Assembly (NCBI GenBank): GCA_035289485.1
Contig: DATDXA010000031.1
Coordinates: 27,807 to 91,806 of the forward strand
Origin: an archaeon
GTDB taxonomy: Archaea > Iainarchaeota > Iainarchaeia > Iainarchaeales > Iainarchaeaceae
DNA: 64,000 bases
Direction of reading: 5' to 3'
Position numbers and translations under genes: made by a program. The notes beneath the pieces were generated by a model. The model saw only the letters and a list, made by a program, of their open reading frames with translations, was not told where the DNA came from and did no database searches. Below are positions 7,992 through 51,908 of the stretch, in pieces; the stretch's first letter is position 1; every line of letters starts with the position of its first letter.

Positions 7992-8528
7992 CTAGCAAAC
8001 GCCGCTGAATTTCACAACGACAGCGCCCTTTTCCGTTGCGGATTCTGACAATTTGTTCGATAAATCATAGGCACTCACAACCACATCATAAGTGCCGCAT
8101 TGTTCGGAGCCATCCGGATAGCAATAATGAGTCACCGAAGTCGCATTCGGTGGCACTGGCTGATTTGACAAATCACAGAAATATGCGCCCGATATCTGCG
8201 ATTTTATTGTCACGCTGTATTTTGAAACTTTCGGCCCGACATCGAATTTTACCGCAAACCAGTCATCTCCTGAACCGCTCCCTGATCCGCTTCCGGATCC
8301 GCCGCTAAATGAGGTCATAATCGCCTTTTTGCACGCTGTAGGGGACGTTATTTTCACCCCATCCGGCGCGACAGGTATGTTGCTTTTCACAGAATCAAAG
8401 TTGCAGCCGGTCTGGGTTTGCCCAGTTCCAATGGTGTTAAGCGCGAGAACGGTTATTATCGCAAGAACTGCCAATGCTCCGCCGAGCAGAAGAAGATATT
8501 CGGTTGCTGTCTGTGCGCGGCTTTCCAT
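7992..8528 (-). CDS. Pilin-like protein with class III signal peptide, paralog C (short form, core domain only)
   Basis: MESRAQTATEYLLLLGGALAVLAIITVLALN, the same conserved core, a (GS)6 linker, and EKGAVVVKFSGVC at the C-terminus. Confidence 0.7.
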   Translation of the reverse strand: MESRAQTATEYLLLLGGALAVLAIITVLALNTIGTGQTQTGCNFDSVKSNIPVAPDGVKITSPTACKKAIMTSFSGGSGSGSGSGSGDDWFAVKFDVGPKVSKYSVTIKSQISGAYFCDLSNQPVPPNATSVTHYCYPDGSEQCGTYDVVVSAYDLSNKLSESATEKGAVVVKFSGVC

Positions 8529-18176: not shown

Positions 18177-18704
18177 TCACTTCTTTCTTTTAGTTTTCCT
18201 GGAAAGTTCCTTCAAAGGCTTTGCGCGCAGGAACAGTTCAGTAATTATTGAATCCGTTGTTTCTTTAATAGTTTTCCTGTTCTCAAGCTCGATGATTTTT
18301 GCCTTTGCATAGTTGCGAGCGGCATGCTTTTTGCAGTAATCTATCCCTTCGCAGAACACATTGTCCTGCACCTTTTCATCCCTGTATCCGCGCAGTTCAA
18401 GCCTTGCCCCTAATCTCTCAGGGTTCAGGCGCAGCAGCACGCAAAAATCAAACTTGCCCTTTATTTCGCAGAGCATATGCCCCTCAACAATGATGTTTTT
18501 TTCCTTTGCAAGGAGTTTATTTAGCCTCGATTCTAGTTTTTCAATCGGCACCACGAGTTCATTTTCCGCGGCGTCAAACTCCCCGATTCCTTCGCGCAGC
18601 GAGAATTCTTTCTCATTGAGGACCTTATGCCCGAGCTCCTGCCCAAGCTTTTTTGCAATGGTGGTTTTGCCAACCCCCGGGGTTCCTGTTATGCAGATTC
18701 GCAT
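18177..18704 (-). CDS. Fap7/hCINAP-like putative adenylate kinase (P-loop NTPase)
   Basis: MRICITGTPGVGKTT Walker A at the extreme N-terminus and about 175 aa, as in archaeal Fap7-type kinases. Confidence 0.7.
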   Translation of the reverse strand: MRICITGTPGVGKTTIAKKLGQELGHKVLNEKEFSLREGIGEFDAAENELVVPIEKLESRLNKLLAKEKNIIVEGHMLCEIKGKFDFCVLLRLNPERLGARLELRGYRDEKVQDNVFCEGIDYCKKHAARNYAKAKIIELENRKTIKETTDSIITELFLRAKPLKELSRKTKRKK

Positions 18705-19124
18705 CTGGAAATTGGGTCAGGATGGTAATAAAGCATTTCCGAATCGGCCATTAAATCAGAAAGCTGAAAATAGAAAAAGCGGCGGAAAGAGGAGAAGGGG
18801 TGAACAATGAGATTAGCTTACAGAGGCTTAATAGCATAAGTCTTCCTTAGGCCAATAGCTTGGTCAGTTAACCTCTCCCCGCCTTGTTCTAGGCACAGAA
18901 GCAATTTGGCGGCATTGGACTGCTGTTCGGTCTTTAGCCCACTACCACTTACAGATGACATTAAATGTTCCATGCCCAAAACATCATCTCTAATGATTTA
19001 AGTAGTATAAATACCTTTCTGTACAACGGAGCAAGTATAAGGCTCCGTTTACCTAAAGGAGTCATTTTGTTCAGTTATTTGGAAAAATAAGCTTTATAGT
19101 GCCTTTTTTCTTATGTATATTCAC

Positions 19125-19295
19125 TTTTTTTTCGCGCTAAAAAAATTTTTGAAAAAACGCGAAAATTCGGTTTATGTATATGGGTGTTTCTGTGAAAAAT
19201 TTCGCGCTTAATCGCCAAAATGGTTTTTACGGCTTTTCGCGTTTTTCCGTGTCCAAATTTTCGCGCGAATGATGTTTTCATAACGCAAAAAATGG
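19125..19295. repeat. AT-rich intergenic repeat block: palindrome TTTTCGCG-N21-CGCGAAAA plus direct copies of AAATTT(T)CGCGC...CAAAA(A)TGGTTT
   Basis: Read directly: ttttcgcgctaaaaaaatttttgaaaaaacgcgaaaa at 19129-19165. aaatttcgcgc at about 19196 and aaattttcgcgcg at about 19254. ccaaaatggttttt and caaaaaatggttt about 60 nt apart. Confidence 0.6.
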
Positions 19296-19406
19296 TTTAG
19301 AAAAAGAGTTTTAGCAAAACAAATACTTTCTTAGTATATTTTGGGCTGTTCCGGAAGCCTGCTTCCCATTATGGCAAGTAAATGATAGTGGAACTGAATT
19401 ATCCAT

Positions 19407-19733
19407 TCAAATATTTTTCATCAATTCCTTTTTCACTTTCTCAAAGAACTGCGGGGTTACTTTGCCAATCTCCTTGAGGAAAAGTTCCTTTTCCATCGAG
19501 GCAATGGTATCCGTTCTTACAAAGCTTTTTGCCCTGAGTTCCCCTGAAAAATCCTTTTCCGTCATTTCAAGCTCAAATTCTTTCATGGTTGCCTTGGTTG
19601 TCAGGGGGCAAGTCCAATAGAATGCGTGCGCGTTGTTGAAATGTTCATTTGAGATTATCAGTGCCGGCCTTATTTTGTAATCAATTTGGTTTGTGAAGGG
19701 AAACCTTGCCAAAGCCACGGTTAATTGGTTCAT
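19407..19733 (-). CDS. PemK/MazF-family toxin (mRNA interferase)
   Basis: DYKIRPALIISNEHFNNAHAFYWTCPLTTK matches the MazF/PemK core (RP.l..s......v.P.T). Confidence 0.7.
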   Translation of the reverse strand: MNQLTVALARFPFTNQIDYKIRPALIISNEHFNNAHAFYWTCPLTTKATMKEFELEMTEKDFSGELRAKSFVRTDTIASMEKELFLKEIGKVTPQFFEKVKKELMKNI

Positions 19734-19739
19734 TGAAAA

Positions 19740-19955
19740 TCACAGGTATGTTTTCCAGATTTCGTCCTCATCGTTGCCCCATATTTTTTCAAGCGCCCTT
19801 TGCGAAAGTGCCGCTTTGGCATACTTGTTCGGGCCCATTTTTTCCCGCAGTATTTCCCTTATGACCTCACTTCTGCTCTTGTAGAGGCCTGATTTTACCC
19901 TGCCGTCTATCCATTTTTCCATTTCATCCGTGACATCCGCGCTTAGTGTTGTCAT
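19740..19955 (-). CDS. Ribbon-helix-helix (CopG/ParD-like) antitoxin paired with the PemK toxin
   Basis: VKSGLYKSRSEVIREILRE RHH signature. 71 aa, immediately upstream of the toxin. Confidence 0.65.
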   Translation of the reverse strand: MTTLSADVTDEMEKWIDGRVKSGLYKSRSEVIREILREKMGPNKYAKAALSQRALEKIWGNDEDEIWKTYL

Positions 19956-20156
19956 ACATCACATATAGCGGGCTATATTTTTAAAGGTTATGAAATTGGC
20001 AAAGCAGGGCAATCTTGCACAAAACTATTTACTAAAAAATCTTAGTAAAACAAAGAATCTTTTGGTATAATTTAAGCGCCATTATGGCACACATTATGCC
20101 TTGGCAACAACTGCGTTGTTGATTCAATTTCCCGCCGATTTTGGGCTGTCTTTTAT

Positions 20157-20441
20157 TTGTTTTGCAGCCAGTTCCTTCAAATGCTTCTAGAATTTTTCGC
20201 ATACCTAACGGGCCTATTTGGAATACTCATGGCTTTTGGCCATTTCTTCCAGGCAAACAGGATTTACAAAAACAAAAGCTCAAAGGATGTGAGCCTTGTC
20301 AATTACATAATTCTAATGGTCGGCTGCTGGGTGTGGCTCATTTATGGGATATTGAAGCAGGACTACCCGATAATGATAAGCTTTGGGATTTCAGTTGTAG
20401 GGACAACTGCGGTTGTTGCGCTCAAGTTTGTTTACAAGTAG
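20157..20441 (+). CDS. SemiSWEET (MtN3/PQ-loop) sugar transporter, 3-TM half unit
   Basis: 94 aa with three TM helices. FQANRIYKNKSSKDVSL matches the PQ-loop motif (PQxxKxxKxKSxxGVS). Confidence 0.7.
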   Translation: MFCSQFLQMLLEFFAYLTGLFGILMAFGHFFQANRIYKNKSSKDVSLVNYIILMVGCWVWLIYGILKQDYPIMISFGISVVGTTAVVALKFVYK

Positions 20442-21353: not shown

Positions 21354-24300
21354 TTACTTCAACCTTACCGAATCCAAATTCCTTATCGCCTGCGAGCTTA
21401 TCCCGAACTTTTGCGAAAAGTGCTTTGCAAGCTCAACACATTTCTCGGCTTCGCCGTGATCTGTAAGTATTCTCTTCGGCTTGGGCTTTAGGTTTCTCAC
21501 ATACGCAGAGAGCTGCATGCGATCAGAGTGCCCTGAAAACCCATCAAGCCTTTCAATCCTAAGATTCACATTCAGTTTTCTTGTCCTTCCGGCATTATCC
21601 GTAATCGGCAGGCTCTTTACTCCGCTTAGAACCTTTCTTCCAAGCGAGCCTTCACCCTGGTAACCTACAAAAGCAAGTGTATTGACCGGGTTCTCCGCGA
21701 GGCGGTAGAAGTACTGAACGCTTGCTCCGCCAGTTAGCATTCCGCTAGAAGCCAGAATTATTGCTTTCCCGTTCTGTGCAATTGCGTCCCTGTCCTCCGG
21801 CTTTGCAACCTGGAAAATATCTGAAGTGAAGGGCGAATCGTTTTGCAAAACCCTCTTCTGAACTCCCGTGCGCAAATACTCAGGATATGCCGTGTGTATT
21901 GCCGAGCTCTCCTTGGTCATTCCATCAATATACACTTTGACTTCAGGGTCAATTAGGCCTTTTCTGTAATAATTCTCAATTACAAGCTGAATCTCCTGCG
22001 CCCTTCCGACAGCAAACACGGGCACCAAAATAGAGCCGCCCTGATTCACAGTTTCTTGTATGATTTTCAAAAACCTCGCTTCCGTGTCCTCACGCGCGGT
22101 TTGAATGTCATCCTTTCCGCCGTATGTGCTCTCAACAATAAGGGTTTCAAGCCTTGGATAATTTATGTCAACATTATTGAAGAGCCTGCTAAAGCCGTAC
22201 TTGATGTCTGCGCTGTAAACCAAGTTGTGCGCCCCCTCTCCAATATGAAGGTGCACTGATGCGCTTCCGAGCACATGTGCCGCATTATGGAATGTAAGCC
22301 TCATATCCGGCGCAATATCAGTAACTTCGCGGTAATCGCGTGTGATGCAGTACTTGAGCATTTCCTTAACATCGCGCTCAGAATAAGGCGCTTCCTTATT
22401 CTCCTTTGCCATGATGTCAAGATAGTCAAAGAGAAGCAGCGCGCCAAGATCACGTGTCGGCTCGGTGTTGTGAAGGCAAATTGGCGCTTCCCCGCCAACA
22501 AAATTCTGGTCATCTTCAACCGAAAAGTCGTAGACAAACCCATTAGTTGGCTCTACCATATTAATCTCTGTAATCGGGAGGAATGCCAGGTCGGTTTCTG
22601 AAAACTCCATTAACTTTTCCCTGGTTTCCTGCGCCACCAAAGAAGTGCCATTGGCACTTTTTACCCAATTCTTATTTAGAAGTTCTGCAAGCCTTTGCTT
22701 GGTGACATGCTTTCTATTTTTCAGCCTGTGGTAAAACCACTCTTGCCCAAAACCCACTTCTTTTAAGGGCAAAATATCGCACCCTTTCTTATCTAATCTT
22801 CTTTTTCCAAAGAACTCGGATAAATTTATTGTGATGCTGTAAACCGTATTTTTTGTTTTTGCTTTCGGCATCGCAATAGTAAATTTGCTGTATGTAAAGC
22901 CGAGTTGCGAGCATAAATATGACAAATCCGAGGCCAAATCCTTGCTGACAGTTGTTGCGGTAGCTGTCTTGTTCAGTTGGTTTATTGTGCCATCACCTTC
23001 AAAATAGGCTTCCAGAAAAGCTAACTTTAGTTCGTCCCCGACGTTGAATACTATTTCTGGTATTCTTTTACTTGTTGCTTTTTTATAGCCTGGGAAAAAT
23101 TCTTTCTTGAATACGTCCAACAAATTTTTAGAATTTATTGCCACCCTAAGCCTTGTTTCCTGGCTTATGCTATCTTTTGCCTCAATGTCGAACACTTTTC
23201 TAACCGCATTTTTAAGTTCCTCTACAATTCCCCTGTCTTTGAGCCCGAAGGTGAGCCTTATCCCCCTTTTCTCAAAATGACCTTCTGCAGTAAAATATCC
23301 TAAAATTTTCATGAGGTCTGTGTTCACGCTGATTTTGCCCGGGAGCTTGATTTTGGATCCTTTGCCATTGTATTGCTCCAAGCCAATCGTTTCAATTTTT
23401 TCATTTCCTGACGGGAGTTTGTGCGGGGCAATAAGATAGTCCCCAATCTTTAATTCGCTGACTTTGGCATCAGAGATTTTTCCATTTTTGAGGACAAATA
23501 CGCTGTGGGATCCCGTTACCTTTACCTTTCTTTTGTTCCTTGTCACAATTTCAAATATTTTGCCTTCAACTTTGTGCCTTATTACTTTTTTGACTTTCTT
23601 AAAATTAATTTTCTTGTCTTTTGAGAAAGCAGGCACGTATAACTCCTGATTTGGCTGTGCCGCCATGTATTCGTTTTCAGGATAAAAATCCACATTCTTC
23701 GAGTTGCCGATGATTTTATCTATCACTGCGCCAATTTTTTCTATTTTTATGCGGCCATTTTCCTTTATCATAACCGGTTCTGCATAGTCCACACTCATGT
23801 ACACCGGGCCGCGGTAACCCAGTTTGAACAGGTAAGGCAAAAATCCTATGTGGTCCATGTGCGTGTGGCTAATCACAACCGCATCAAGCTCATTTATCGG
23901 GAAGCGAATCGCGTCAAGATAGGGAAATGCGTCCTCAGAGTTTTGCGCCGCAACATTGATTCCACAGTCCATTAATATTTTTGTCCTGCGGGTTTCAAGC
24001 ATTATGCAGCTTCTTCCAACCTGCCTAAATCCTCCAAGAGGAGTTAGCCTAATCCAGCTCGGGCCCGGCTTTTCAGAATAAATTTTCTTTGCAGTTTCCT
24101 GCAAAATCTTTTTGCGCTCGGAAGCATATTTCACAAGGTGGTGCCTAATCCCGCGCAATATTTCACTTGGCGAAGTCGGGCTTCTCAAAATTTTAGGGGT
24201 CCATCCGGTTTGCAGTATAATTTCTTTTGTTGTCATTCCGCCCTTGCCAATTACAAGGCCGGGCTTAAGCGCTTCAATTACAACTTCACTAAAAGCTTCC

Positions 24301-24581
24301 ATGAACTGAATGTCCGCGATTTTGGCGTCCTCAGGGACAATTTTCATTATCTTTTCGCGCGCCTCTTTTTCCTCAAGCAGCAGAGATTTGTCCGCGCGGA
24401 TATTCACTTTCTTCTTTAGCTGGTGCGCAATCGCGCGCACATAATCCTCGTTCTCGTGGAAAGCGCGGGGATTTTTTGTATAAATCGCAATCTCAGGCCC
24501 TTCAAGGTCGACTGATGAGACTTCGGCTTCCTTTGGCACGATTGCCGCAACAGTTTCCTTTACTTCCTTTAGATATTCCAT
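21354..24581 (-). CDS. aCPSF1 / FttA (KH-KH, metallo-beta-lactamase, beta-CASP, RMMBL ribonuclease; archaeal transcription termination factor) interrupted by an intein
   Basis: N-terminal KH domains (VIGKGGMTTKEI), HTHMDH zinc motif, and GPVYM then intein then TEPTRDL, which aligns with ...GPVYCTRPTRDL... of intein-free aCPSF1. C-terminal beta-CASP/RMMBL region. 1075 aa = 259 + 446 + 370. Confidence 0.9.
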   Translation of the reverse strand: MEYLKEVKETVAAIVPKEAEVSSVDLEGPEIAIYTKNPRAFHENEDYVRAIAHQLKKKVNIRADKSLLLEEKEAREKIMKIVPEDAKIADIQFMEAFSEVVIEALKPGLVIGKGGMTTKEIILQTGWTPKILRSPTSPSEILRGIRHHLVKYASERKKILQETAKKIYSEKPGPSWIRLTPLGGFRQVGRSCIMLETRRTKILMDCGINVAAQNSEDAFPYLDAIRFPINELDAVVISHTHMDHIGFLPYLFKLGYRGPVYMSVDYAEPVMIKENGRIKIEKIGAVIDKIIGNSKNVDFYPENEYMAAQPNQELYVPAFSKDKKINFKKVKKVIRHKVEGKIFEIVTRNKRKVKVTGSHSVFVLKNGKISDAKVSELKIGDYLIAPHKLPSGNEKIETIGLEQYNGKGSKIKLPGKISVNTDLMKILGYFTAEGHFEKRGIRLTFGLKDRGIVEELKNAVRKVFDIEAKDSISQETRLRVAINSKNLLDVFKKEFFPGYKKATSKRIPEIVFNVGDELKLAFLEAYFEGDGTINQLNKTATATTVSKDLASDLSYLCSQLGFTYSKFTIAMPKAKTKNTVYSITINLSEFFGKRRLDKKGCDILPLKEVGFGQEWFYHRLKNRKHVTKQRLAELLNKNWVKSANGTSLVAQETREKLMEFSETDLAFLPITEINMVEPTNGFVYDFSVEDDQNFVGGEAPICLHNTEPTRDLGALLLFDYLDIMAKENKEAPYSERDVKEMLKYCITRDYREVTDIAPDMRLTFHNAAHVLGSASVHLHIGEGAHNLVYSADIKYGFSRLFNNVDINYPRLETLIVESTYGGKDDIQTAREDTEARFLKIIQETVNQGGSILVPVFAVGRAQEIQLVIENYYRKGLIDPEVKVYIDGMTKESSAIHTAYPEYLRTGVQKRVLQNDSPFTSDIFQVAKPEDRDAIAQNGKAIILASSGMLTGGASVQYFYRLAENPVNTLAFVGYQGEGSLGRKVLSGVKSLPITDNAGRTRKLNVNLRIERLDGFSGHSDRMQLSAYVRNLKPKPKRILTDHGEAEKCVELAKHFSQKFGISSQAIRNLDSVRLK
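22467..23804 (-). mobile_element. Intein (446 aa, Ser1...His-Asn, +1 Thr) with LAGLIDADG homing-endonuclease domain, inserted in aCPSF1
   Basis: Begins SVDYAEPVMI and ends ICLHN followed by T. LAGLIDADG motifs ILGYFTAEGHF and LKLAFLEAYFEGDGTI. AT-richer than the exteins. Confidence 0.8.
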
Positions 24582-33281: not shown

Positions 33282-35618
33282 TTACGCCGCCTTCTCAGCA
33301 ATTTCCTTCTCAATAAGCGACCTTATCTTCTCCGCATCGAACCCGAGCTTAATGAGCCTTGTCTGGCCCTTGATTCCTTTCCCGGAATTTGTCGAGTGTA
33401 TGAGCCCGTACATTTCAAGTTCGGAGATGTATTCGCGGTACCAGCGCGCGCTCACCGTGGTTTCCTTGAATTTTTTTGAAATGCGGCAGTACTCATCGTA
33501 AATTTCCCCAGAGAACAAAACCCCTTCCTCGCTCTCGCCGGTTATTTTTTGCATCGGTTTTTTGTTCAGCGCAAGCGCCGCAATCGCATACAAAACAAGC
33601 TGCTGCTGCTCAGGAAGAGTAGAAACCATATTGAAAATTATCTCCTCTTCTACGGTTTTCTTCGCCTTTTTAACTTCGGCATCCGTAACTTTGCCAAGCG
33701 ATTTCTTATCGGCAATCTCACCTGCTCGCAGCATGAGCATTACCGCAGTGCGCGCATCCCCAGATTCCTGCGCTGCCACTGCTGCCGCGAGATGTATTGC
33801 GGATTCTTCAATGGTATTTGGCCGAAAAGCCGATTGCACGCGTTGCTTTATGATTTCCGTGAGCTCCTGCGCATTATATGGCGGGAACACAAGCTCGTGC
33901 TCGCAGAGGCTGCTTTTGGTGCGCGGGTCAAGCCTGTCTTTAAACATCACATTGTTTGAAATGCCAATTATTGATATGCCGCCATCCTTTATTTCATCGT
34001 TCGCGCGCGTGAGGCCATAAATTAATTCATCCAGGTCCTTTACTTTATCAACTTCATCCAGTACGAGTATCAGTTGCTTTCCCCTGCGCGCGTAATCAAC
34101 CAGCTTTTCGTAAATGAAAGCCGCGGAAAAGCCCAAAAAATTCTCCTCAGGGTACAATTCCTTTACAATCTTTATGAGGATGCGGTATTTGCTGTTGTGA
34201 TTTCTGCAGTTGACGTAATTTCCCTCAATTGGCATGTTCTTTGAGATTGCAAAATCAAGAAGCTGCTGCATCACATGCTTTGTAACCGAAGTTTTCCCGG
34301 TATTATGGGAAATAATTCCATTTGCGATAAAATTATGGTTTTTTGGAACCGTCAAATCATACACAAAATCTTCAAATGCCTCTTCAATCTTTGCAATTTT
34401 TGAGGCGGAAAAGCCCGTTTCATTAATTGGCATTGTTTTGACATACTTTGTAATCATTATCCGCAGCCTTTCTTGTTTTACAGTGCTATAAAACCCTATT
34501 TTATTGTAAAATTTGAATATGTTTTCCTGTCCCTGTATATATAGTCGGTAGGCGTCAAATATTTTTCCGTTTAATTTGGCTGGCTTGCTTCTGACTTTGC
34601 ATCTGATTCCTTCCTGGTATAAAATATATGCGACCTGCTGCAGGAATTTTTTTGAATTCGAGTAGTACTCTATCTGAAATGTTTGCTGGCTTACAGTGCC
34701 ATCGCCGGAAAACAAAGCCTTCAAAAACTCCCTTTGGATTGTGGGTGAGGCTTGTAAAATCGATTCGGGAACTTCAATAATCCGGCTTTTCTCTCCAAAA
34801 GGGACTCCAAGTGAGTTCAGAGTTTGGCACGCGTTTTGTGAAATCATGTTGACGTGTGCACACCTGTCCTTTGGATAAATTATTGACGGGGTTCCGCCAA
34901 AGACTTTTGCCAAATCCTCCTGCACTTTTTTAAGCAAATTAGCATCAATGCTGAAATATCTATATCTTTGCCTGTCCGCATTATAGTAATAACCTCTGCC
35001 ATCCTTTGCTTTTTTCTGTTTTCTATTAAGACTTCCGTCGCTTAAAGTAAAACCCAGCAATCTGGCCAGTGCAAGTGGCATTTCATGGTCATTTAAGGAT
35101 GGCAAATCATATCCAAGTGCAAGTTCATCAGCTATCTTCAATTGATTGGACTTTTTCCACTCCATATCCGAAGTTAAAAGAGGATGGTCCCGTGTAACAG
35201 TCAACTCATAGCCGTTTTCAAGTGTTATTTTAAGCAATTTGTCATTATTCTTGTATTTCAGGAAGACAAAATCAGACCACTCATATTTTTTTATTTTCTT
35301 GTTGAATGTGGCCACTAAATCAGTTAGCATATCAACGTCTCTGATTTTTTTCCACCCATTACTCGTGTAAACAAGGCTGTCGCCTGCAATGCAACCCGTT
35401 TTTCCGTAAATGAAAACATTGTCGGATTTCTTGCCGCGGATTGATTCTGAGAGGATTGAGGAGATTTGTTCTATATACTTGTCGCGGAAAGGGAGTATTT
35501 TAGGAGTATAATGCGTGGTTATGATGTTTCTGTCCAAAAAAATGGTTTCGCGCGCGAACTCGCGCTCAAAAATGTTCACACGTTCAGAACTAACCGTAGA
35601 TACAGAAGTATTTTGCAA
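33282..35618 (-). CDS. Orc1/Cdc6 replication initiator interrupted by an intein in the Walker A P-loop. TTG start as tracked.
   Basis: Extein reads ...NVFIYGKTG then intein then TGKTSVTKHV (P-loop GKTGTGKTS once spliced). LVLDEVD Walker B and a C-terminal winged helix. 778 aa = 75 + 364 + 339. Confidence 0.9.
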   Translation of the reverse strand: MQNTSVSTVSSERVNIFEREFARETIFLDRNIITTHYTPKILPFRDKYIEQISSILSESIRGKKSDNVFIYGKTGCIAGDSLVYTSNGWKKIRDVDMLTDLVATFNKKIKKYEWSDFVFLKYKNNDKLLKITLENGYELTVTRDHPLLTSDMEWKKSNQLKIADELALGYDLPSLNDHEMPLALARLLGFTLSDGSLNRKQKKAKDGRGYYYNADRQRYRYFSIDANLLKKVQEDLAKVFGGTPSIIYPKDRCAHVNMISQNACQTLNSLGVPFGEKSRIIEVPESILQASPTIQREFLKALFSGDGTVSQQTFQIEYYSNSKKFLQQVAYILYQEGIRCKVRSKPAKLNGKIFDAYRLYIQGQENIFKFYNKIGFYSTVKQERLRIMITKYVKTMPINETGFSASKIAKIEEAFEDFVYDLTVPKNHNFIANGIISHNTGKTSVTKHVMQQLLDFAISKNMPIEGNYVNCRNHNSKYRILIKIVKELYPEENFLGFSAAFIYEKLVDYARRGKQLILVLDEVDKVKDLDELIYGLTRANDEIKDGGISIIGISNNVMFKDRLDPRTKSSLCEHELVFPPYNAQELTEIIKQRVQSAFRPNTIEESAIHLAAAVAAQESGDARTAVMLMLRAGEIADKKSLGKVTDAEVKKAKKTVEEEIIFNMVSTLPEQQQLVLYAIAALALNKKPMQKITGESEEGVLFSGEIYDEYCRISKKFKETTVSARWYREYISELEMYGLIHSTNSGKGIKGQTRLIKLGFDAEKIRSLIEKEIAEKAA
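34302..35393 (-). mobile_element. Intein (364 aa, Cys1...His-Asn, +1 Thr) with LAGLIDADG homing-endonuclease domain, inserted in Orc1/Cdc6
   Basis: Starts CIAGDSLVYTSNG and ends NGIISHN followed by T. LAGLIDADG motifs LARLLGFTLSDGSL and FLKALFSGDGTV. AT-rich relative to exteins. Confidence 0.8.
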
Positions 35619-35674
35619 AATTTTAATCCCCCGAACTCACTTGGACTGAACTGGATTTAAGGGAATTGAGTTGT

Positions 35675-35691
35675 GGAAGTGAACCACTTCC
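35675..35691. promoter_or_regulatory. Palindrome GGAAGTG-AAC-CACTTCC, 57 nt upstream of orc1/cdc6; ORB-like candidate Orc1 binding site
   Basis: Read directly. Contains the 11-mer GTGGAAGTGAA, which is also present upstream of the polD operon at 43348-43358. Confidence 0.4.
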
Positions 35692-35735
35692 GATACTGCG
35701 TGTTTGCTTTCCTAATTTTGCCTTGTAATTTTTCC

Positions 35736-36017
35736 TTACGCAGGGCTTTCCGGTTTTTGCATTTGCATTTTTTTATTCCTATTATTGGCTGCAATCAATC
35801 TCTGGTGCGCATCAACTGCGGCCGCATAATTCTTTCTGAGCGGCTCCAATTCGGCTTCCGGACGCTCGTCAGCTGCACGTAGCGCCCTTAGCGCCCGATT
35901 CTTGGCTTCTTTTAGCGCCGCAAGGTCGGCAGGCGGCTTTGCAGGCTCAATATGCGGATGCACAACTGTCTCAGCCGGGCTTAGAGGCCCTTTTCTTGGG
36001 AATAATCGCATTCTCAT
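35736..36017 (-). CDS. Hypothetical small protein (uncertain)
   Basis: 93 aa, Ala/Arg-rich, GC-rich frame, no motif. Confidence 0.25.
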   Translation of the reverse strand: MRMRLFPRKGPLSPAETVVHPHIEPAKPPADLAALKEAKNRALRALRAADERPEAELEPLRKNYAAAVDAHQRLIAANNRNKKMQMQKPESPA

Positions 36018-36139
36018 GTCATCAATTGCCGTTTATCTGATTTAAATCCTTTTTGTGTTATGTATTTTCTGAGAACTTGCCTCATGTCAGAAATCAAATT
36101 CAAGGTTTTTGGCGCGGGGAAAGCCTTAAAATATAGTTA

Positions 36140-36544
36140 ATGTGTATTAGTATCAATAAGTTCTCATTTCTAGAAGGGGTGATTGTATTGGCTTTCATGG
36201 AAAAGCTTATTGGAAAGAGAGACGAACTTGATATTGAGGATTTCCTCAACAATCTAGATACCGAGGAAGAAAATCCGTACGAGGATGCGGAGGCTTTTGT
36301 AAAGCCCATAACCTTGCAAACAGAACACGACAAGGATGTGGTGCTAGAAGAGGCAAAGAAGGGCAACATATTGCTCATAAACATAGCCGACCTCTCAAAA
36401 CGGAACGCTATGAAGCTAAAGGAACTCGTAACCGCCATAAGGGCAGGAATAGAGGACATTGACGGGGATGTTGCAAGAATTTCACAGGATAGAATCATAG
36501 TAACTCCCGCAAAGGTCAAGATAATTAAGAGAAAGGAAGAGTAA
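36140..36544 (+). CDS. sepF: SepF-like cell-division protein (DUF552), likely start at MEKLIG about 36197
   Basis: The C-terminal domain ...KKGNILLINIADLSKRNAMKLKELVTAIRAGIEDIDGDVARISQDRIIVTPAKVKII matches the SepF fold pattern. Confidence 0.6.
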   Translation: MCISINKFSFLEGVIVLAFMEKLIGKRDELDIEDFLNNLDTEEENPYEDAEAFVKPITLQTEHDKDVVLEEAKKGNILLINIADLSKRNAMKLKELVTAIRAGIEDIDGDVARISQDRIIVTPAKVKIIKRKEE

Positions 36545-36556
36545 ACAGTGAAGTGA

Positions 36557-37372
36557 ATGCTTCTGGAGAAACCAGCCTTTTCGCCTGCGCTGAACGCAGC
36601 GGATGCCGAACGGGCGGTTTCCTCATTGCTTAAAAAAAATCACTGGAATAAATACGACTTCTCGGGGAAGGAAATATTCTACATCCCCTATTGGTTTTTT
36701 TCATACGACATTTACGAACAGGTAGAGAAGAAAACAAATCATCTCTCAAGCGGCTTCAATTCTTTAAACGCATTCTCAAACGAGTTTGATAAGAGCATTG
36801 CAGCGCTCACGCACGATTCGGACGCCAAGAAAAAAAACGAGCTTGACGATGCGGCAAACGTTCATGTTGTGAGCCCGCGCCTAAGTGAGGATGAGGCAAG
36901 GGGAATAATTTCTGTTCGCCTCGCATCAAATGAGGGGACTTCAAAAGAGCACGTGATAATTTCGGGCCTTGCGATGTTTTTCGTTCCAATCTGGCTTATT
37001 GGCGTGAGCATTAGCAAGAAAAAAATTTCCCTGCGCGTGAACGCCGTGAATGGCGACATTGAAAACGCAAAAGCTGTTCCAAGGCGCGAGAAAGGCTTCT
37101 CAGAACTTACAGCTGAAGTTCTTGAAGAGCTCAAAACTCCCGCGGGCTGGATTGAATACTCAACTGGCGCTGTGGGGATGATTTCAGATGCAATTGCGGG
37201 TATTGCCAAGAGCTCTGTGCAATCAAAGAAAAAAAATAAATTTTCCGTATCCGGAAAAATCAGCTTTTCAGCCGGCGAAGAGGCGCCAAGCATTTCCAAC
37301 AATGACATTCAGGTAATAATTCTCGCGATGGTTGCGATAATTATTATTTTGTGGGCGATTTACAGGTTCTGA
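36557..37372 (+). CDS. Hypothetical protein with central and C-terminal TM helices, immediately downstream of sepF
   Basis: 271 aa, no recognised family. C-terminal helix IQVIILAMVAIIIILWAIY. Confidence 0.45.
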   Translation: MLLEKPAFSPALNAADAERAVSSLLKKNHWNKYDFSGKEIFYIPYWFFSYDIYEQVEKKTNHLSSGFNSLNAFSNEFDKSIAALTHDSDAKKKNELDDAANVHVVSPRLSEDEARGIISVRLASNEGTSKEHVIISGLAMFFVPIWLIGVSISKKKISLRVNAVNGDIENAKAVPRREKGFSELTAEVLEELKTPAGWIEYSTGAVGMISDAIAGIAKSSVQSKKKNKFSVSGKISFSAGEEAPSISNNDIQVIILAMVAIIIILWAIYRF

Positions 37373-37387
37373 AAAAACAGTTCGGCA

Positions 37388-38026
37388 TTATTTTCGCATT
37401 TTTATTCCAGTTCCCGAGAGCTTAGCGGGAATGCCTAATGAAGATGCAACTTCTAATAAATATTCAAAGTTCCAAGTTTGTGTTATATATGCCTCTCCAC
37501 CCGGTTTTAAAATTTCGTAAATGTTTGACAGTGAACTTCTCGAATCTCCGCCCCAATCAACTCCACCTCTAGTCGAAACAACCAAATGAAAGCGATTCTT
37601 CCCAAAACGGCGTGCCAAATCATGCACGGATACTTTGTGAAAATTCGGCTGGCTATGCCTGTCAACCAAATCAGAATTCGTGATTCTTATTCCTTTCTCA
37701 CTTGCAAGTTCAGCGGCAAAAGAGCTTTCTCCGCATCCTTCATTGAGTATTTCGATTCTTTGTTTTGGAAAACGCGCTTTTAATGTGCCAACTTTTTTCC
37801 TGAAATTTACCCCGTGGTCTCTCTGAATTTTTTCCAAGTTACGCCTATACTCTCCAATATTTCCATTTGGTCCATACCGCATAACAAAATCTTTTGCCGC
37901 GTCTATTTCCCCTTCACGCCTTCCAGCTTTGCTTCTAACATAAGCCCTTCTGCGGGCGTATTGGTCCGGCTTTCTTCTAGGGCTTGGCATGAACACACAA
38001 CCATTTTGCGATATTAAAATTATCAC
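37388..38026 (-). CDS. Class I SAM-dependent methyltransferase (substrate unknown)
   Basis: Motif I EILNEGCGESSFAAELA and motif post-I IRITNSDLVD. 212 aa. Confidence 0.6.
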   Translation of the reverse strand: MIILISQNGCVFMPSPRRKPDQYARRRAYVRSKAGRREGEIDAAKDFVMRYGPNGNIGEYRRNLEKIQRDHGVNFRKKVGTLKARFPKQRIEILNEGCGESSFAAELASEKGIRITNSDLVDRHSQPNFHKVSVHDLARRFGKNRFHLVVSTRGGVDWGGDSRSSLSNIYEILKPGGEAYITQTWNFEYLLEVASSLGIPAKLSGTGIKMRK

Positions 38027-41000
38027 ACATACTCAAACAAACTCTTCTGCCGCACCTTGTCATTTGTGAACACGGAATTAATTTCCTTTTCCACAAGCTC
38101 AATTCTCTGCTTGAGATAGGCGCTCAAAGAATATTCGCGTATGAGGCTCTTTGCAATTGTCAAATATTTCTTAACAGATCCTTGCGCTATTGTAAGTATC
38201 AGCGTTTCCTCTCCGCACTTTGTGCATTTCCCAATGAGCGGTATGCGCCTGAATTTTTCATTGCACTTGCTGCACCTAATCACCTGGCGCGAAAACGAGC
38301 GCGCATTCCCAATAATATCCGGAAGGAAATGGCTCATTAGCACCCTCTCAAGCGCGTCCTTTTTTTCAACCGCGCGGATTTTTCCCTGCACCGCCGCCTG
38401 CGCGTGGATTTTTTCCTCCATTGATTTGAATGTGATGTAGCTGGATTCTTTTGGCCCCTCATCAAAGAGCGCGGTTTCATGCGTGTAAAAAAATCCCCTG
38501 TACTGCCCGTCCTTTCCTATTTTTGCCTTTATTATCGGAACAGATGAAAGTTCCGGGTCGCTTAGAAGCATGCTCTTTTCATATAGTTCAAGCGGGTACT
38601 CACGGCACGTTTCAACCTCATACACCTCATCATCAATTTCCTGCGGATTTATTGCAACCGAGAACACAAGAGGCGCATCCATTCTTCCGCCCCTGGTTGA
38701 TGGGAGATAGAGCCTTGAGAAATTCAAAAGCGCATCCATTAGAAGCATTATCGAATCCTGGTCGCCGTCCGCATTCCTTCTTTTCGCGAGATGGAAATAC
38801 GGATGAGCGAAATTAACTTTCGCCTTTGTGTATCCAATTATCCTGCAAACAACTCCTGCCGATGTGTGCGGCGCAAGCCCCAAAAACAAATCTCCGACAA
38901 GCTCCTCTTTTGTCGTAATATTATAGTAAGGCGCCATCCCGTAAAATCTTTCAAGCTCCTCATCAACAAATTTTGAAACGCGCACGAAAAAATCCCCCGC
39001 GTCCTCATTTACAACCATATCCTGTACAAAAATCTCACACATCTGCGTATCGCTAACAAGCTCTTTTCCCTCAAAATCAAGCGTGTACCCAAGCTCGTGC
39101 GCCTTCTCAACGCTCAGCCCTATTTCTTTTGGCTTGAAGTGCGTTAGCGGAGCATTCAATAGCTCAAATCTAATTGTTGCATCCCTGAAAATGTGCAGAT
39201 TCTGGCGCGCGCGAAGTATCCCTTTCTCAATGGGTTCTGGCATCTTATCCGCATTTATGAGCCCTTTCACTCCCTTCACAAGTGCTGGCGGGCTAAGCCC
39301 GAGATTTTTTGCGGCTTCAGTGAAAATTTTGCGCACATCCACTTTTCTGCTGCTAAAACCCGATGTTTCCGAGCCGCATTTTGTGCAGATTTCCGCTTTT
39401 CCAAACTTCCCGCATTTTTTGCACTTTCTTGCGGATTCATTCCTGCTAGAAGTCGCATGCGAATACGGTTGCTCCTCCACATTTTCAGTTTTCGTGTTGA
39501 TAAAGTAGGCAACTTCCGCTTCCACGCTCCCATAATTTTCCGCGGCCTTGTTAATTGAGCGTATGCTCCCTCCAGCTGTTCCTATCGGAAAGAGAGTCAT
39601 CGGGTCCCCGACCATTTTTCGCGGCTTTGCAGCCTCTGGGCGGCCCATTCTGCATCCAACAAAGGTTCCCGCTTTATCCATTATTTTCATGCCCGAAAGC
39701 GCGGAGAGCATTTCAAGGACCGTTGAATCTTTTTTGGGCTCCTCTTCATTTGTGCCGCCAAAAGTTTTGAAAAACGAATAAGCATATTCATGCCCAATCA
39801 CAATCGCCCCTTCACGCAGCTTGTGCGGCAGCCCGATTTTTTCAAGGAGCGCCTTGTTCTCCGCACTGCCGGAGAGCAAGAGCTCATCGATTTCGGTTCC
39901 TGAAAAAACTTTCTCGCAAGAGCGCACCTGCCCGATTAGAAACGCCGCTTCTTCCGAAGTTAGCGCAGTATAATAGTGCAGGTACTTGGGGTGCAGCGCA
40001 ATTCCCGTCTGCAATGAGAGTTCTACTGCGGTGTTCTGGTCAACCGAATTCGGGTTTGCAAGCATCGGCCCGAAATCAAACGCATTTTCCTTCCCTGTCT
40101 GTTCGGACGCGATATTTCGCAGCTCAAGCATCCACCACTCCTCACAATATCCCGCTGGCATCAGAGGGTGCGCTGTCTTTCTAAAATCCCCAAGCGCTAT
40201 TAGCATGTCCCCTAAAAATATTATTTCCTTCACAGCAGCCCTCATCTTAATTGCTTCCGCAGCAGATGAAATTTTTCGCACTTCCCCGTCCACAAGCTTT
40301 ACTATGGGGCCTTCGATGCTATCAACCGGAAACATCTCGGCGCTCTTTCCCGGCCGCTCCATTTTCGTTTGCGTCCCAACCGCCAAAAAATCATCAAGAA
40401 GATGCATAGAAGCCGGGTGGATTCCCTTTGCCATTATGCATGTGTTTCTTGCCCTTCCATACCGCAGCCGAAAGCCTCCATATTTTGAGGGGTATGAAAA
40501 AATCGGCCTTCCCGCCGCAATCCTTGAAAGATAATTGAAATTCGGCTTCACTTCCTTTTCCTTGCCGCTTGAGCCCTTGCCGATTTTTATTATCTCCTCA
40601 AGCCAGTTCCAGTTCAATCCAAGCATTTTTGCAAATGTCATTATTTTCATGGCCTTTAGCCCGACACCTTCCGAAATCACAAGGCACATTCCGCCGCGCA
40701 CCCTGTTTGAGGGAATCCTCTCAAGGTCTTTGTGGTTATTCACTTCGCGCTCCTCAGTTGGCTCTCCGTTAACGCACACCGGGCAGCCGCGCACAATCTT
40801 TCGCACCTCATCATCTTTGAGCTTGTACTGCCTTGTGATGATTTCATCGTAGATATTTATTTCCTCAACATATCTCTCCACTTCGTCCTCTGTTGGCTTG
40901 TAGCGGTCAAGCCCCATAAGCGACCTTGCATAATCGCCCAAAATCAGCGGGAACACTGTTGCGGTTCCACCAGCCGCCCTAATCGGCCCTGCAAAATAAA

Positions 41001-41442
41001 TGTCGACGTATTTGCTGCCATCAGGGTTTTTGCTTATTTTAATTTTGGGCACCCCGTCAAGCGGCGCTACAACAACCCCCTCCGTTACAAGCACAAGGCA
41101 TGTTTTCACCGCCTGCTCAAGCCTTTTTTCCGCATCCGGAATCTTCACAAGCTTTTCTTCAATGATTTCGCGAAAGAGCTGGAAAATTGCCCTGTTGCGG
41201 TCTCCCTTGAACTCTTCCCAGAGTTCCCTGTAGCGCTTTGCAACTCCTTTTGGGCCTATGATGTTCTCTGTCCTGTCCGCAAGGTCAAGTGTAGGGGGGC
41301 ACTCGACTTCAAGAGCCACATCCTTTCCAATGGCGCGCGCCTGCGATGCGATTGAGTACTGCCTATCCACGCGCTTTTTTATGGATTCGAAATAATTTTT
41401 TGTGGCAGAATCCGCCTTCACTTCAAGCTTCACTTCAGTCAT
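38023..41442 (-). CDS. DNA polymerase D (family D) large catalytic subunit DP2
   Basis: 1139 aa. N-terminal region conserved with PolD DP2 proteins, Zn-finger cysteine clusters (CKKCGKFGKAEICTKCG; CSKCNEKFRRIPLIGKCTKCG). Overlaps the DP1 gene by 4 nt. No intein. Confidence 0.9.
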   Translation of the reverse strand: MTEVKLEVKADSATKNYFESIKKRVDRQYSIASQARAIGKDVALEVECPPTLDLADRTENIIGPKGVAKRYRELWEEFKGDRNRAIFQLFREIIEEKLVKIPDAEKRLEQAVKTCLVLVTEGVVVAPLDGVPKIKISKNPDGSKYVDIYFAGPIRAAGGTATVFPLILGDYARSLMGLDRYKPTEDEVERYVEEINIYDEIITRQYKLKDDEVRKIVRGCPVCVNGEPTEEREVNNHKDLERIPSNRVRGGMCLVISEGVGLKAMKIMTFAKMLGLNWNWLEEIIKIGKGSSGKEKEVKPNFNYLSRIAAGRPIFSYPSKYGGFRLRYGRARNTCIMAKGIHPASMHLLDDFLAVGTQTKMERPGKSAEMFPVDSIEGPIVKLVDGEVRKISSAAEAIKMRAAVKEIIFLGDMLIALGDFRKTAHPLMPAGYCEEWWMLELRNIASEQTGKENAFDFGPMLANPNSVDQNTAVELSLQTGIALHPKYLHYYTALTSEEAAFLIGQVRSCEKVFSGTEIDELLLSGSAENKALLEKIGLPHKLREGAIVIGHEYAYSFFKTFGGTNEEEPKKDSTVLEMLSALSGMKIMDKAGTFVGCRMGRPEAAKPRKMVGDPMTLFPIGTAGGSIRSINKAAENYGSVEAEVAYFINTKTENVEEQPYSHATSSRNESARKCKKCGKFGKAEICTKCGSETSGFSSRKVDVRKIFTEAAKNLGLSPPALVKGVKGLINADKMPEPIEKGILRARQNLHIFRDATIRFELLNAPLTHFKPKEIGLSVEKAHELGYTLDFEGKELVSDTQMCEIFVQDMVVNEDAGDFFVRVSKFVDEELERFYGMAPYYNITTKEELVGDLFLGLAPHTSAGVVCRIIGYTKAKVNFAHPYFHLAKRRNADGDQDSIMLLMDALLNFSRLYLPSTRGGRMDAPLVFSVAINPQEIDDEVYEVETCREYPLELYEKSMLLSDPELSSVPIIKAKIGKDGQYRGFFYTHETALFDEGPKESSYITFKSMEEKIHAQAAVQGKIRAVEKKDALERVLMSHFLPDIIGNARSFSRQVIRCSKCNEKFRRIPLIGKCTKCGEETLILTIAQGSVKKYLTIAKSLIREYSLSAYLKQRIELVEKEINSVFTNDKVRQKSLFEYV

Positions 41443-42980
41443 TGCCCGTCCCCTGATTCATTAGCCGCGCCAAAATTATTCTCAGTAAGCCGCCTGGTTT
41501 TGAGGTTGATATCAATTGCAATACCCGGAGTTGGCACAAGCCCCTCTCTTATCTGGTACTCCGTTCTTCCCTGCCAGCAGCCCGCATTTGCAACCATGCA
41601 CCCGCGGTACTGCGCGTACCCTTTGATGTGCATATCCCCGCCAAAATAATAATCCGGCTCCTCTCGAATCACCATGTAATCCCTCTTCTCAGGAACATAC
41701 GGCTGCGTTAGCCCAAAACCAGTTGATAAATCCCGCTTGCGCAAAAGCTCAACCATTGCCTGCGCGGGTTCCCTATAGCTTAGATGCTTAGTGGCAGCAA
41801 TCATGTCATGAAAAGAAGCGCCGTGATAAATCATGCATTTCATTCCCTCAAGTTCAACCCAGCTTGGCGAACCCACAAAATGCATATTCTTCATCGCATG
41901 CATCTCCTTTGCAAATTCCTCTGGTATTGCAGGCTGCGGATCAGCCCTTCTCACGGCGTCGTGCTGGCCTGGGCACATAAAAATTTCAATGTACTCGGGG
42001 ATTTGCGAAATCACTTCAGTTAACTTTTCATACTGCTCGTAAATATCCTTGATTTCAAGCTCATCATACTGCTCCGGATAAATTCCCACGCCATCCACAT
42101 TGTCCCCTGCAATCACAAGGTATTTTATTTTTCCAACGCGCGCGATTTCCTTCTCGCCGCTCACATTTCCATTTAGCCATGAGATAAATTTTGAAAATTC
42201 CTTTTCCATAAACAGCCGGCTTCCCATGTGTATGTCTGAAATTAGGCACACACTCAAATCGCGCTCTGAACTGCGCGGCGAGCGCTGCATGATTTCGGGC
42301 CACAAAAAAGATTTCGCAATAATCATCTCATCTGAGAACGCCTTTCCCTTAACCCCGATAACATCATCTAGCAGAATTTTTGCGCTGTCGCGGCTTGTTT
42401 CAAGATGCTCTTTGGAAACAACCACAAGGCATCTTCCCTCGGGGCTATCCAGTTCGATTATAGTGTTGCCGTTTTTGCTCACCCACTTTTCAACAACCAT
42501 TCCTATGAGATCAATTTCGGCATATTTTGCAAGGCCCTTTAGCCTGTCAAAAGTTTTCGGAGAAAACCCGGGGCGGTGCGCAAGAAGCGAGTGCAGGAAT
42601 GTGTACTTGTCGCGAAAATAGCCAAGAAAGTCCTTAATTTTCCCTTCGCTTGCGCTCTTATTCGTCACTTCATATTCTTCCATTACCCGAAAATCCGCTT
42701 CAACATCTTTGGCAAGCGCGTTGAAGCGTGATTTTTTAACAATCACCTCTTCTTTTACGCTCCCAAGTTTCGAGTCATGCTTTACAAGATTTTGCTTTAC
42801 CTTTTCAGCGGAGATTATGGGCTCTTCAATGCCCTCAATTATTTCCTTCCAGTGCTCCTCTGCTTCAAGAAGCCCAATGGATTCGCGGTCTATTAGCTGC
42901 CCATTGCCTGTGCAGAATTCGACAATTTCTTTTTTACGGTTTTCAGTCAAGGTCGCGGAAGCCACACTTATCCCTTGCAT
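41439..42980 (-). CDS. DNA polymerase D small subunit DP1 (Mre11-like calcineurin phosphoesterase, 3'-5' exonuclease)
   Basis: Phosphoesterase motifs (ISDIHMGS, AGDNVDG, MCPGQHD, GDMHIKGY) and an N-terminal OB region. 513 aa. Confidence 0.9.
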   Translation of the reverse strand: MQGISVASATLTENRKKEIVEFCTGNGQLIDRESIGLLEAEEHWKEIIEGIEEPIISAEKVKQNLVKHDSKLGSVKEEVIVKKSRFNALAKDVEADFRVMEEYEVTNKSASEGKIKDFLGYFRDKYTFLHSLLAHRPGFSPKTFDRLKGLAKYAEIDLIGMVVEKWVSKNGNTIIELDSPEGRCLVVVSKEHLETSRDSAKILLDDVIGVKGKAFSDEMIIAKSFLWPEIMQRSPRSSERDLSVCLISDIHMGSRLFMEKEFSKFISWLNGNVSGEKEIARVGKIKYLVIAGDNVDGVGIYPEQYDELEIKDIYEQYEKLTEVISQIPEYIEIFMCPGQHDAVRRADPQPAIPEEFAKEMHAMKNMHFVGSPSWVELEGMKCMIYHGASFHDMIAATKHLSYREPAQAMVELLRKRDLSTGFGLTQPYVPEKRDYMVIREEPDYYFGGDMHIKGYAQYRGCMVANAGCWQGRTEYQIREGLVPTPGIAIDINLKTRRLTENNFGAANESGDGQ

Positions 42981-43246
42981 TTCTCCCTAACGGATTCGAG
43001 TTCGGAAATTATGGTCCATATTTCAGTGCGCGTGTGCGCGGGCATATTGATGTCGTTACTGATGTCTTCCATGAGATAAATCGCATTTGAAATATTCACA
43101 TCAAGCTGCGCCTCACTTGAGGTTATTTTCGCCCTTGCATCTTCACAAGCCTTGCGTATGTTTCGCGGCACTGTGGTGTCATCCATAATGGCATCCATTA
43201 GCTCGGCAATATAATCAACCCTTTCCTCAATGCTTGCTTCCTTCAT
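42968..43246 (-). CDS. UPF0147-family conserved archaeal protein
   Basis: 92 aa, helical, VPRNIRKACEDA motif resembling UPF0147. Overlaps the DP1 start by 13 nt (same operon). Confidence 0.5.
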   Translation of the reverse strand: MKEASIEERVDYIAELMDAIMDDTTVPRNIRKACEDARAKITSSEAQLDVNISNAIYLMEDISNDINMPAHTRTEIWTIISELESVREKCKG

Positions 43247-43347
43247 CTAAAACACCTCAAGTTTGGAAAGATTTGCAAATGAAAAATAAGTGCCTGCCCC
43301 AAAAAAGGCGCCGCTTGCCACTTTGTTAAAATCAGCCAACATATGCA

Positions 43348-43420
43348 TTCACTTCCACGGATAGTTCAATCCGCTTGAAATAGATTTTGCGCAAACCCAA
43401 TATAAATGCTACTGGAAGTT
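43348..43420. promoter_or_regulatory. Inverted pair of ORB-like elements (CACTTCCAC at 43350-58; CTGGAAGTT at 43412-20) flanking a 53-nt AT-rich spacer, upstream of the UPF0147-DP1-DP2 operon
   Basis: Read directly. The first element is the reverse complement of GTGGAAGTGAA found upstream of orc1. Confidence 0.35.
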
Positions 43421-43432
43421 CTAAGTTGCGGA

Positions 43433-51730: not shown

Positions 51731-51908
51731 TTTTTCACTTCAACAATTTTTAGCCTTAAATCTAAAACCAATTAACTTTCCTAAAACCAAATTTACTTAT
51801 GGTGCCTTCCTGCCCTATCGGAACAGGAGAGCTAAACTTCAAAAACTGCTAACTAATCTCCCTAGAGAAACCTATAAAAACCGAAGTGTGTTATGTAGAA
51901 TATATCTC

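Follow-up and report, generated by a model that had tools for sequence, protein, structure and literature searches.

We report that the palindrome GGAAGTG-AAC-CACTTCC, found upstream of the replication initiator gene orc1/cdc6 in a 64,000-nucleotide (nt) stretch of contig DATDXA010000031.1 (the window, to whose numbering all positions refer), is probably the core of a composite putative operator in the orc1 promoter of a Diapherotrites-like clade of DPANN archaea. In the same reading, to which we assign a probability of about 0.7, no replication origin lies at this place, and the 11-mer GTGGAAGTGAA, which the palindrome has in common with the upstream region of the operon encoding DNA polymerase D (PolD), is unrelated there. 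To our knowledge, nothing is known experimentally about the control of replication initiation in DPANN archaea. The original prediction had seen in the shared 11-mer an origin recognition box (ORB) of the kind bound by Orc1, marking either an origin beside the replication genes or the auto- and cross-regulation of both promoters by Orc1.

The element upstream of orc1

The palindrome occupies positions 35675-35691 and begins 57 nt from the TTG start codon of orc1 at position 35618, where the original prediction had placed it. Related loci were fetched in three ways, 3 of them via the DP1 protein, 67 via the Orc1 protein without its intein and 4 via exact-protein look-up; individual loci are referred to below by L numbers. 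In 23 of these loci, all from Diapherotrites-like archaea and including a few duplicate sequences, the arrangement GGAA-N9(-10)-TTCC with conserved flanks precedes orc1, at Orc1 identities from about 88% down to about 59%. The consensus of the related loci shows the palindrome to be the core of a 27-base-pair (bp) block, AsC-GGAAK-yrGTTyr-CTTCC-ACAACTC, which in the window reads ATC-GGAAGTGGTTCACTTCC-ACAACTC in the orc1 sense (35668-35694, minus strand). The arms GGAA and TTCC of the dyad are invariant and the inner pairs are variable. A second box, GGAAAGCAAAC (35702-35712, minus strand), starts 21 nt 5' of the dyad in the orc1 sense. Most loci carry GGAAAsCrAA or a variant of it 18-21 nt upstream of the dyad, usually starting at 20-21 nt, and this box is similar to the right half-site of the dyad in reverse complement (GGAAGCAAAC in L005, L008 and L010). 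Beyond these boxes the DNA is unconserved, with differing small open reading frames (ORFs) inserted, while the element itself persists in all 23 loci.

The distance from the dyad to a TATA-like heptamer (CTTTTAA, CTTAAAT or similar) is 13 nt in 16 of the 23 loci, and in six others a TATA-like pattern follows 9-12 nt after the dyad, mostly within a run of T. The predicted orc1 TATA box of the window is CTTAAAT at 35655-35661 (minus strand). About 30 nt beyond the TATA-like box the relatives carry TAGGGG and then a TTG start; in the window, a Shine-Dalgarno-like GGGGG (35628-35632, minus strand) stands 9 nt before the TTG of orc1, and TAGGGG or GGGGG followed by TTG-CAR is kept in the relatives. 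Because TTG-CAR is kept at the aligned place, we take the TTG start at 35618 to be real.

A weight matrix for the 27-bp element, built from 17 sites, gave a single match in the window at 42 bits, compared with 12 bits for the runner-up and a maximum of 20 bits in shuffled sequence. When the 721 kilobases (kb) of fetched DNA were searched for GGAAG-N7-CTTCC, matches within the clade were found only at orc1, and the others were coding or in distant lineages. Judged by its conservation, the orc1-proximal palindrome is a cis-element of the predicted orc1 promoter, kept beyond what chance would allow.

We propose that the operator is about 48 bp long and has three parts: the GGAAAsCrAA box, the dyad GGAAK-N7-CTTCC with its conserved GTT centre some two helical turns beyond that box, and the ACAACTC flank. 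It would end 13 nt before the TATA box, just upstream of the expected TFB recognition element. A sequence-specific DNA-binding protein, probably a dimer or two monomers, would sit on the operator and, by helping or hindering the recruitment of TBP and TFB, would set the level of orc1 transcription. We infer the protein binding and its effect on transcription, as well as the TATA-box and transcript-start assignments, from the arrangement of the sequence.

Which protein might bind is a separate question. The published ORB consensus is CTTCCAGTGGAAACGAAAGGGGT (PMC4153887, Table 2), and no match to it was found in the spacer between orc1 and the neighbouring gene sepF. The half-site GTGGAAGTGAAC, compared with the ORB core GTGGAAATGAAA, agrees at 10 of 12 positions, and at 9 of 12 in the loci that carry GGAAGCAAAC. 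The internal dyad TTCCA-N-TGGAA of ORBs is not present at the orc1 element, in which GAGTT precedes GTGGAA, and the G-rich 3' extension (GGGGT) is also lacking; CCACTTCC follows the core, and no locus has a G-string. Scans with TTCCAGTGGAAAY and with the 23-mer consensus gave no hit in the upstream regions of orc1, and in the window no hit that stood clearly above shuffled sequence. The more distant orc1 loci, which served as a positive control, showed no canonical ORBs, and the absence of a canonical ORB is therefore weak evidence when taken alone. Of the proposed likeness to ORBs, this partial agreement at the core of the half-site is all that is seen; the internal dyad and the G-string are missing. 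We give somewhat less than even odds to binding by Orc1 itself, that is, to autoregulation through the ORB-core-like half-sites, and about the same odds to binding by an unlinked transcription factor. Autoregulation is attractive because the operator adjoins the gene, has half-sites like the ORB core and is unique in the window.

A more elaborate version of autoregulation is possible, although we consider it doubtful. In this version, orc1 would have become uncoupled from the origin and an ORB remnant would have been kept as an autoregulatory operator, so that Orc1, bound to two inverted GGAA(A)GYRAAC units, would throttle its own promoter. In addition, CTACATAA boxes at the promoters of orc1, sepF and, in some cases, polD would tie the initiator, division and polymerase genes into a cell-cycle circuit.

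The shared 11-mer and the leader of the polD operon

The operon encoding PolD consists of the genes for UPF0147 (42968-43246), DP1 (41439-42980) and DP2 (38023-41442), identified by Pfam and together spanning 38023-43246 on the minus strand; the same gene order is kept in relatives. Upstream of it, CACTTCCAC at 43350-43358 and CTGGAAGTT at 43412-43420 do lie at the positions first given for them, with 53 nt of 35.8% GC between them. They had been taken as an inverted pair of ORBs around an AT-rich spacer, that is, as a miniature origin. We compared the seven complete polD-upstream regions at hand (those of the window, L001, L010, L011, L016, L027 and L053), and all seven have a strong TATA-like box about 20-30 nt upstream of a hairpin. 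In the window, the predicted TATA box of the operon is ATTTATATT (43399-43407, minus strand) and the hairpin is GCGGAT-TGAACT-ATCCGT (43357-43375, minus strand), with a folding energy of -12.6 kcal/mol. RNAalifold analysis of the seven loci revealed compensatory changes in 5 of the 6 pairs, with stem variants such as CGGAT/ATCCG, GCGGGC/GCCCGC and CAGCT/AGCTG around a TGAAYT loop that is kept. The position of the TATA-like box therefore places the hairpin at the predicted 5' end of the polD transcript. The 53-nt spacer is thus made up of a predicted TATA box, a predicted transcript start and a 5' hairpin, which speaks against a miniature origin.

The polD copy of the 11-mer (43348-43358, minus strand) is intergenic and lies downstream of the predicted TATA box. 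It contains the Shine-Dalgarno-like sequence GGAAGTGA of a short upstream ORF, which is one mismatch away from the Shine-Dalgarno consensus GGAGGTGA and is followed in the window by ATGCAT and then by ATG, the ATG standing 5 nt after the 11-mer. The possible upstream ORF, as read from the sequence, has 31 codons (43247-43342, minus strand), and its stop codon abuts the start codon of UPF0147. In the same genome GAAGTGA stands 1-5 nt before the ATG of the window genes at 18172, 36557 and 51730. The 11-mer is missing at the polD leader from 5 of the 6 relatives compared. At the aligned place the relatives carry GGTGG, GGAGG or GGGGG in its stead, followed by ATG(G), within purine-rich boxes (GTGGTGGTAAT in L001, GGGGGTTGAAC in L010, and GCGGAGG in L053 and L016), and from this ATG(G) run putative short ORFs of 10-20 codons, whose predicted peptides are unconserved. 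The polD copy has the marks of a Shine-Dalgarno sequence, namely the match to GGAGGTGA, a start codon within 4-9 nt, and recurrence in the genome and in relatives. The other member of the supposed inverted pair, CTGGAAGTT (43412-43420, plus strand), lies upstream of the predicted TATA box and outside any conserved element; it matches the 11-mer at the 6-mer level only and is missing from L001, L010, L011, L016 and L053. Neither member of the pair is conserved in relatives. The hairpin, the Shine-Dalgarno-like box and the short ORF may together form a cis-regulatory leader of the PolD operon, and the 11-mer copy in it is most likely an unrelated, coincidental sequence resembling a ribosome-binding site.

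We then asked how surprising the shared 11-mer is. Exact copies of GTGGAAGTGAA occur four times in the window. Those at 6446 and 7383 lie within two tandem paralogous genes, where both encode EKGAVEVKN, and the other two are intergenic. In a simulation with the lengths of the orc1 and polD regions, the probability of a shared 11-mer was 0.022, and within the window there are 22 pairs of intergenic regions with an exact 11-mer in common. When the orc1 element was compared with the polD upstream region in eight other genomes, the longest words in common were 5-9 nt, which is the chance level. The 11-mer common to the two upstream regions is compatible with chance, and the link between the two promoters that had been drawn from it does not hold up.

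A shared regulon, in which Orc1 or another factor would bind GTGGAAGTGAA at both promoters and so co-regulate the initiator and the polymerase, seems improbable to us. The exact 11-mer is indeed present in both upstream regions, and shuffled versions of the polD upstream region reached a shared word of 11 nt in 0 of 300 trials. L027 carries GGAAGT at the equivalent place of its polD leader, and in Pyrococcus Cdc6 binds an ORB cluster in dp1 (PMC1904270). However, with the 27-bp matrix the polD copy stays below threshold, and it lies in the leader, downstream of the predicted TATA box. L001 is a close relative (81% identity in DP1) from the assembly that also contains L071, and it has GTGGTGGTAAT at this place despite an identical stretch of 25 nt before it. 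The chance-length words in the eight other genomes, the recurrence of GAAGTGA ahead of ATG in this genome and the 22 intergenic pairs with a common 11-mer also count against the regulon. Cross-regulation of the polD operon through the 11-mer, as suggested in the original prediction, fares no better, since the copy is downstream of the TATA box, Shine-Dalgarno-like and unconserved.

RNA hairpin, replication origin or DNA site

The orc1 palindrome could in principle act as RNA, either as a hairpin in a short upstream transcript or as a terminator or attenuator of the variable upstream gene. It folds better than shuffled sequence on either strand (z about -2.4), T-rich sequence follows it, and in many loci a CTACATAA box and then A/T-rich sequence, which could act as a promoter, stand 35-50 nt upstream of it. 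However, the observed covariation was reached in 78 of 500 shuffles, and each covariation measure was reached by 53-225 of the 500. The outer four pairs of the dyad never vary and are therefore uninformative on pairing, whereas the inner three break or change independently, with uncompensated changes to T-C in L017, L019 and L021 and to G-A in L012. The element is kept without a co-directional upstream gene in L012, L016 and L053, and therefore is not a terminator. A search of Rfam gave no match at the gathering threshold for the window and three loci, nor any at E values up to 1 for positions 35500-36200. An RNA element is thus very unlikely. The arms are conserved without covariation, a pattern that points to binding by a protein and away from an RNA hairpin, and the economical reading of the orc1 dyad is a DNA site for a putative binding protein. 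Two features expected of an operator are seen: the dyad is conserved in sequence and keeps its distance to the core promoter (23 loci, 13 nt in 16 of them), and RNA pairing does not explain this conservation, the covariation being within the range of shuffles.

Equally little credence can be given to a replication origin, in which the palindrome and its neighbours would be Orc1-bound ORBs marking oriC, as in Pyrococcus or at oriC1 of Sulfolobus. In its favour, the element adjoins an initiator gene, as an archaeal origin would, the start codon of orc1 being 57 nt from the palindrome; its GTGGAA...GAA core is like the ORB consensus CTTCCAGTGGAAACGAAAGGGGT (PMC4153887, Table 2); in Pyrococcus the invariant motifs of ORBs are 'TTCC' and 'GAA' (PMC1904270); and two core-like units are present in inverted orientation. 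Base composition argues otherwise. We expressed skew as G versus C at four-fold degenerate third positions, on the plus strand, and obtained -0.163 for the 22 plus-strand genes and -0.168 for the 41 minus-strand genes. A skew that is independent of the direction of transcription is the signature expected of replication. The cumulative skew, a check that the original prediction had itself proposed and that we ran within the 64-kb window, falls monotonically from position 1 to 64000 with no switch at orc1. Taken in the orientation of orc1, the values are 0.179 on the upstream side (n=2005) and 0.156 on the downstream side (n=2449). With an origin at the spacer, a flip of sign would be expected, and with a partly used one at least a one-sided weakening; neither was seen, which argues against an origin there. 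No polarity switch was found at orc1 in any of the relatives with usable skew (L016, L017, L020, L032 and L053), in all of which the sign is the same on both sides.

Because the skew is uniform, at about -0.16 for both gene orientations, the whole window appears to lie on one replichore. The G-rich strand is usually the leading strand. The minus strand of the window is probably the leading one, and if so, forks would cross the window from high to low coordinates; 41 of the 63 called ORFs are on the minus strand, in agreement with this direction. The evidence places the orc1-polD neighbourhood in the middle of a replichore, not at an origin.

The layout of the spacer also differs from that of an origin. 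The spacer between sepF and orc1 (35619-36139) has no AT-rich unwinding element, its GC content being 45.3% compared with 45.8% for the window, and no repeat families were found in it. Searches for clustered ORB-like repeats, both near orc1 and throughout the window, returned only chance-level families and coding paralogues. In relatives the spacer shrinks to 148-197 nt, made of two core promoters, and the element is held at a fixed 13 nt from the TATA box. The TTCCA-N-TGGAA dyad and the G-string are missing, no canonical ORB scored above shuffled sequence, and an AT-rich unwinding element between inverted initiator sites, as at archaeal origins, was not found at orc1. A literature search for Diapherotrites origins found nothing relevant.

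Some points weigh against a promoter operator without an origin. The 10 of 12 match of GTGGAAGTGAAC to the ORB core leaves room for an origin-type Orc1 site. The skew argument assumes that replication causes the asymmetry, and it would overlook an origin that fires rarely or was acquired recently. The element, unique in 64 kb, could have copies elsewhere in the genome, and the orc1 TATA box and transcript start are predictions from sequence.

Surrounding genes and known systems

The gene identities given in the original prediction (Orc1/Cdc6, UPF0147, DP1 and DP2) were all confirmed by Pfam. In orc1 (33282-35618, minus strand) the Walker A loop is interrupted by an intein bearing a LAGLIDADG endonuclease; the junctions in the Orc1 translation read GKTG/C...HN/TGKT, and the homologue in L002 has no intein. 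The intein is missing from most relatives, and a Hel308-like helicase of L002 has one. There are two inteins with LAGLIDADG domains in the window, at 33282-35618 in Orc1 and at 21354-24581, where the host is an aCPSF1/FttA-type beta-CASP termination factor.

A sepF homologue (36140-36544, plus strand; Pfam SepF, E=4e-9) is divergent from orc1 and bounds the 521-nt spacer. It is found beside orc1 in more than 20 loci, and in relatives the spacer can be as short as 148 nt or exceed 1.5 kb; the short spacers (148-197 nt) consist of two core promoters. The ORF at 36100-36519 (minus strand) was rejected as a gene, being a shadow of sepF on the opposite strand, and that at 35736-36017 (minus strand) was rejected as a conserved gene, being lineage-specific with no homologue in related loci. 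Each close relative has a different basic ORF of 84-306 codons with no Pfam match in the sepF-orc1 space (35736-36017 in the window, 2378-3298 in L071, 1209-1784 in L072 and 1451-1891 in L073). All of these run in the direction of orc1 and stop just ahead of the conserved boxes, and they may represent rapidly evolving genes, a hot spot of insertion or spurious ORFs.

Relatives show a 32-fold enrichment of the CTACATAA box in the 600 nt ahead of orc1, where it invariably lies on the sense strand of orc1 and often in two copies, one close to the TATA box of sepF and the other 35-50 nt ahead of the dyad. In the window, this or related boxes lie at 36058-36065, 51891-51898, 19111-19120 and 19172-19181. 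At a distance of 12-17 nt the box also precedes the TATA box of the gene for ribosomal protein S15 in the window and, in L011, that of the polD operon. An upstream promoter element is a possible role, and the box brings to mind the TACATA boxes bound by EarA in methanococci.

Elsewhere in the window, the region 19100-19280 (34% GC) contains six TTTCGCG(C) repeats in both orientations, including a perfect 13-nt inverted pair, AAAAACGCGAAAA/TTTTCGCGTTTTT, and two ATATACATAA boxes 61 nt apart. It is followed downstream by about 400 nt of non-coding DNA, and Rfam gave no match there at E values up to 1 (18600-20200). We considered this region as an alternative origin on account of its GC content, TTTCGCG repeats and ATATACATAA boxes, and rejected it, as there is no skew switch there. 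A MazF/PemK-like toxin gene at 19407-19960 has a small ribbon-helix-helix-like ORF ahead of it, and the stretch from 19 to 21 kb that holds both, with 38-41% GC and membrane-like ORFs that have no Pfam match, may be a small island. Three tandem paralogous genes lie on the minus strand at 6019-6897, 7010-7939 and 7992-8528; the one tested had no Pfam match, and two of the three contain the exact 11-mer within their coding sequence. The only perfect TTCCA-N-TGGAA dyad of the window is part of ATTCCAATGGAAGTGAATGAGCT at 14116-14138, a sequence that agrees with the ORB consensus at 16 of 23 positions. This single copy lies inside a Pfam-less ORF of 1054 codons and scores barely above shuffled sequence. 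A tRNA scan of the window found no tRNA genes.

The orc1 element is now a sharply defined, conserved 27-48 bp unit, fixed to the orc1 core promoter and available for testing, and a ready probe for the question of whether Orc1 regulates its own gene. It also gives reason for caution, as annotating an oriC next to cdc6 by analogy is unsafe in these genomes.

Among known systems, the ucm motif of Sulfolobus, ATTATACAAAC(TCAAT), is bound by UBP, described as a recent acquisition of Desulfurococcales and Sulfolobales (PMC12141716). The motif is similar to ACAACTCAAT and TACATAA, a likeness that we set aside because the motif is too short and its AT content too high for it to be meaningful. The ORB cluster inside dp1 of Thermococcales (Matsunaga et al. 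2007, PMC1904270) is also an initiator-related sequence near PolD genes, in an orc1-polD neighbourhood, but the copy in the window is a single 11-mer in a leader, not a cluster in coding sequence, and is Shine-Dalgarno-like and unconserved even among close relatives. Leaders with a Shine-Dalgarno sequence and an upstream ORF are closer to the polD copy, in that GGAAGTGA is near GGAGGTGA, an ATG lies downstream and the relatives have purine-rich boxes with ATG; the putative short ORF at polD differs in that its predicted peptide is unconserved.

The ORBs and mini-ORBs bound by initiators of the Orc1-1 type resemble the orc1 element in lying directly upstream of orc1 and in having two units that face each other, and the half-site GTGGAAG(T/C)(G/A)AAC and the box GGAAA(s)C(r)AA resemble the core GTGGAAA(C/T)GAAA. 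Unlike them, the orc1 element has no TTCCA-N-TGGAA dyad, no G-string and no AT-rich region between its units, and it is a single composite, 13 nt from a TATA-like box and with no skew switch. Archaeal activator and repressor sites can abut the TFB recognition element and the TATA box, as do the upstream sites of Ptr2 and TFB-RF1, and the NrpR operator of methanogens is GGAA-N6-TTCC. Like these sites, the orc1 element is a short dyad with GGAA/TTCC arms that keeps a constant distance from the core promoter and is conserved in sequence and not through base pairing. It differs from them in its arm spacing of 9 rather than 6, its place upstream of the TATA box and its target, orc1.

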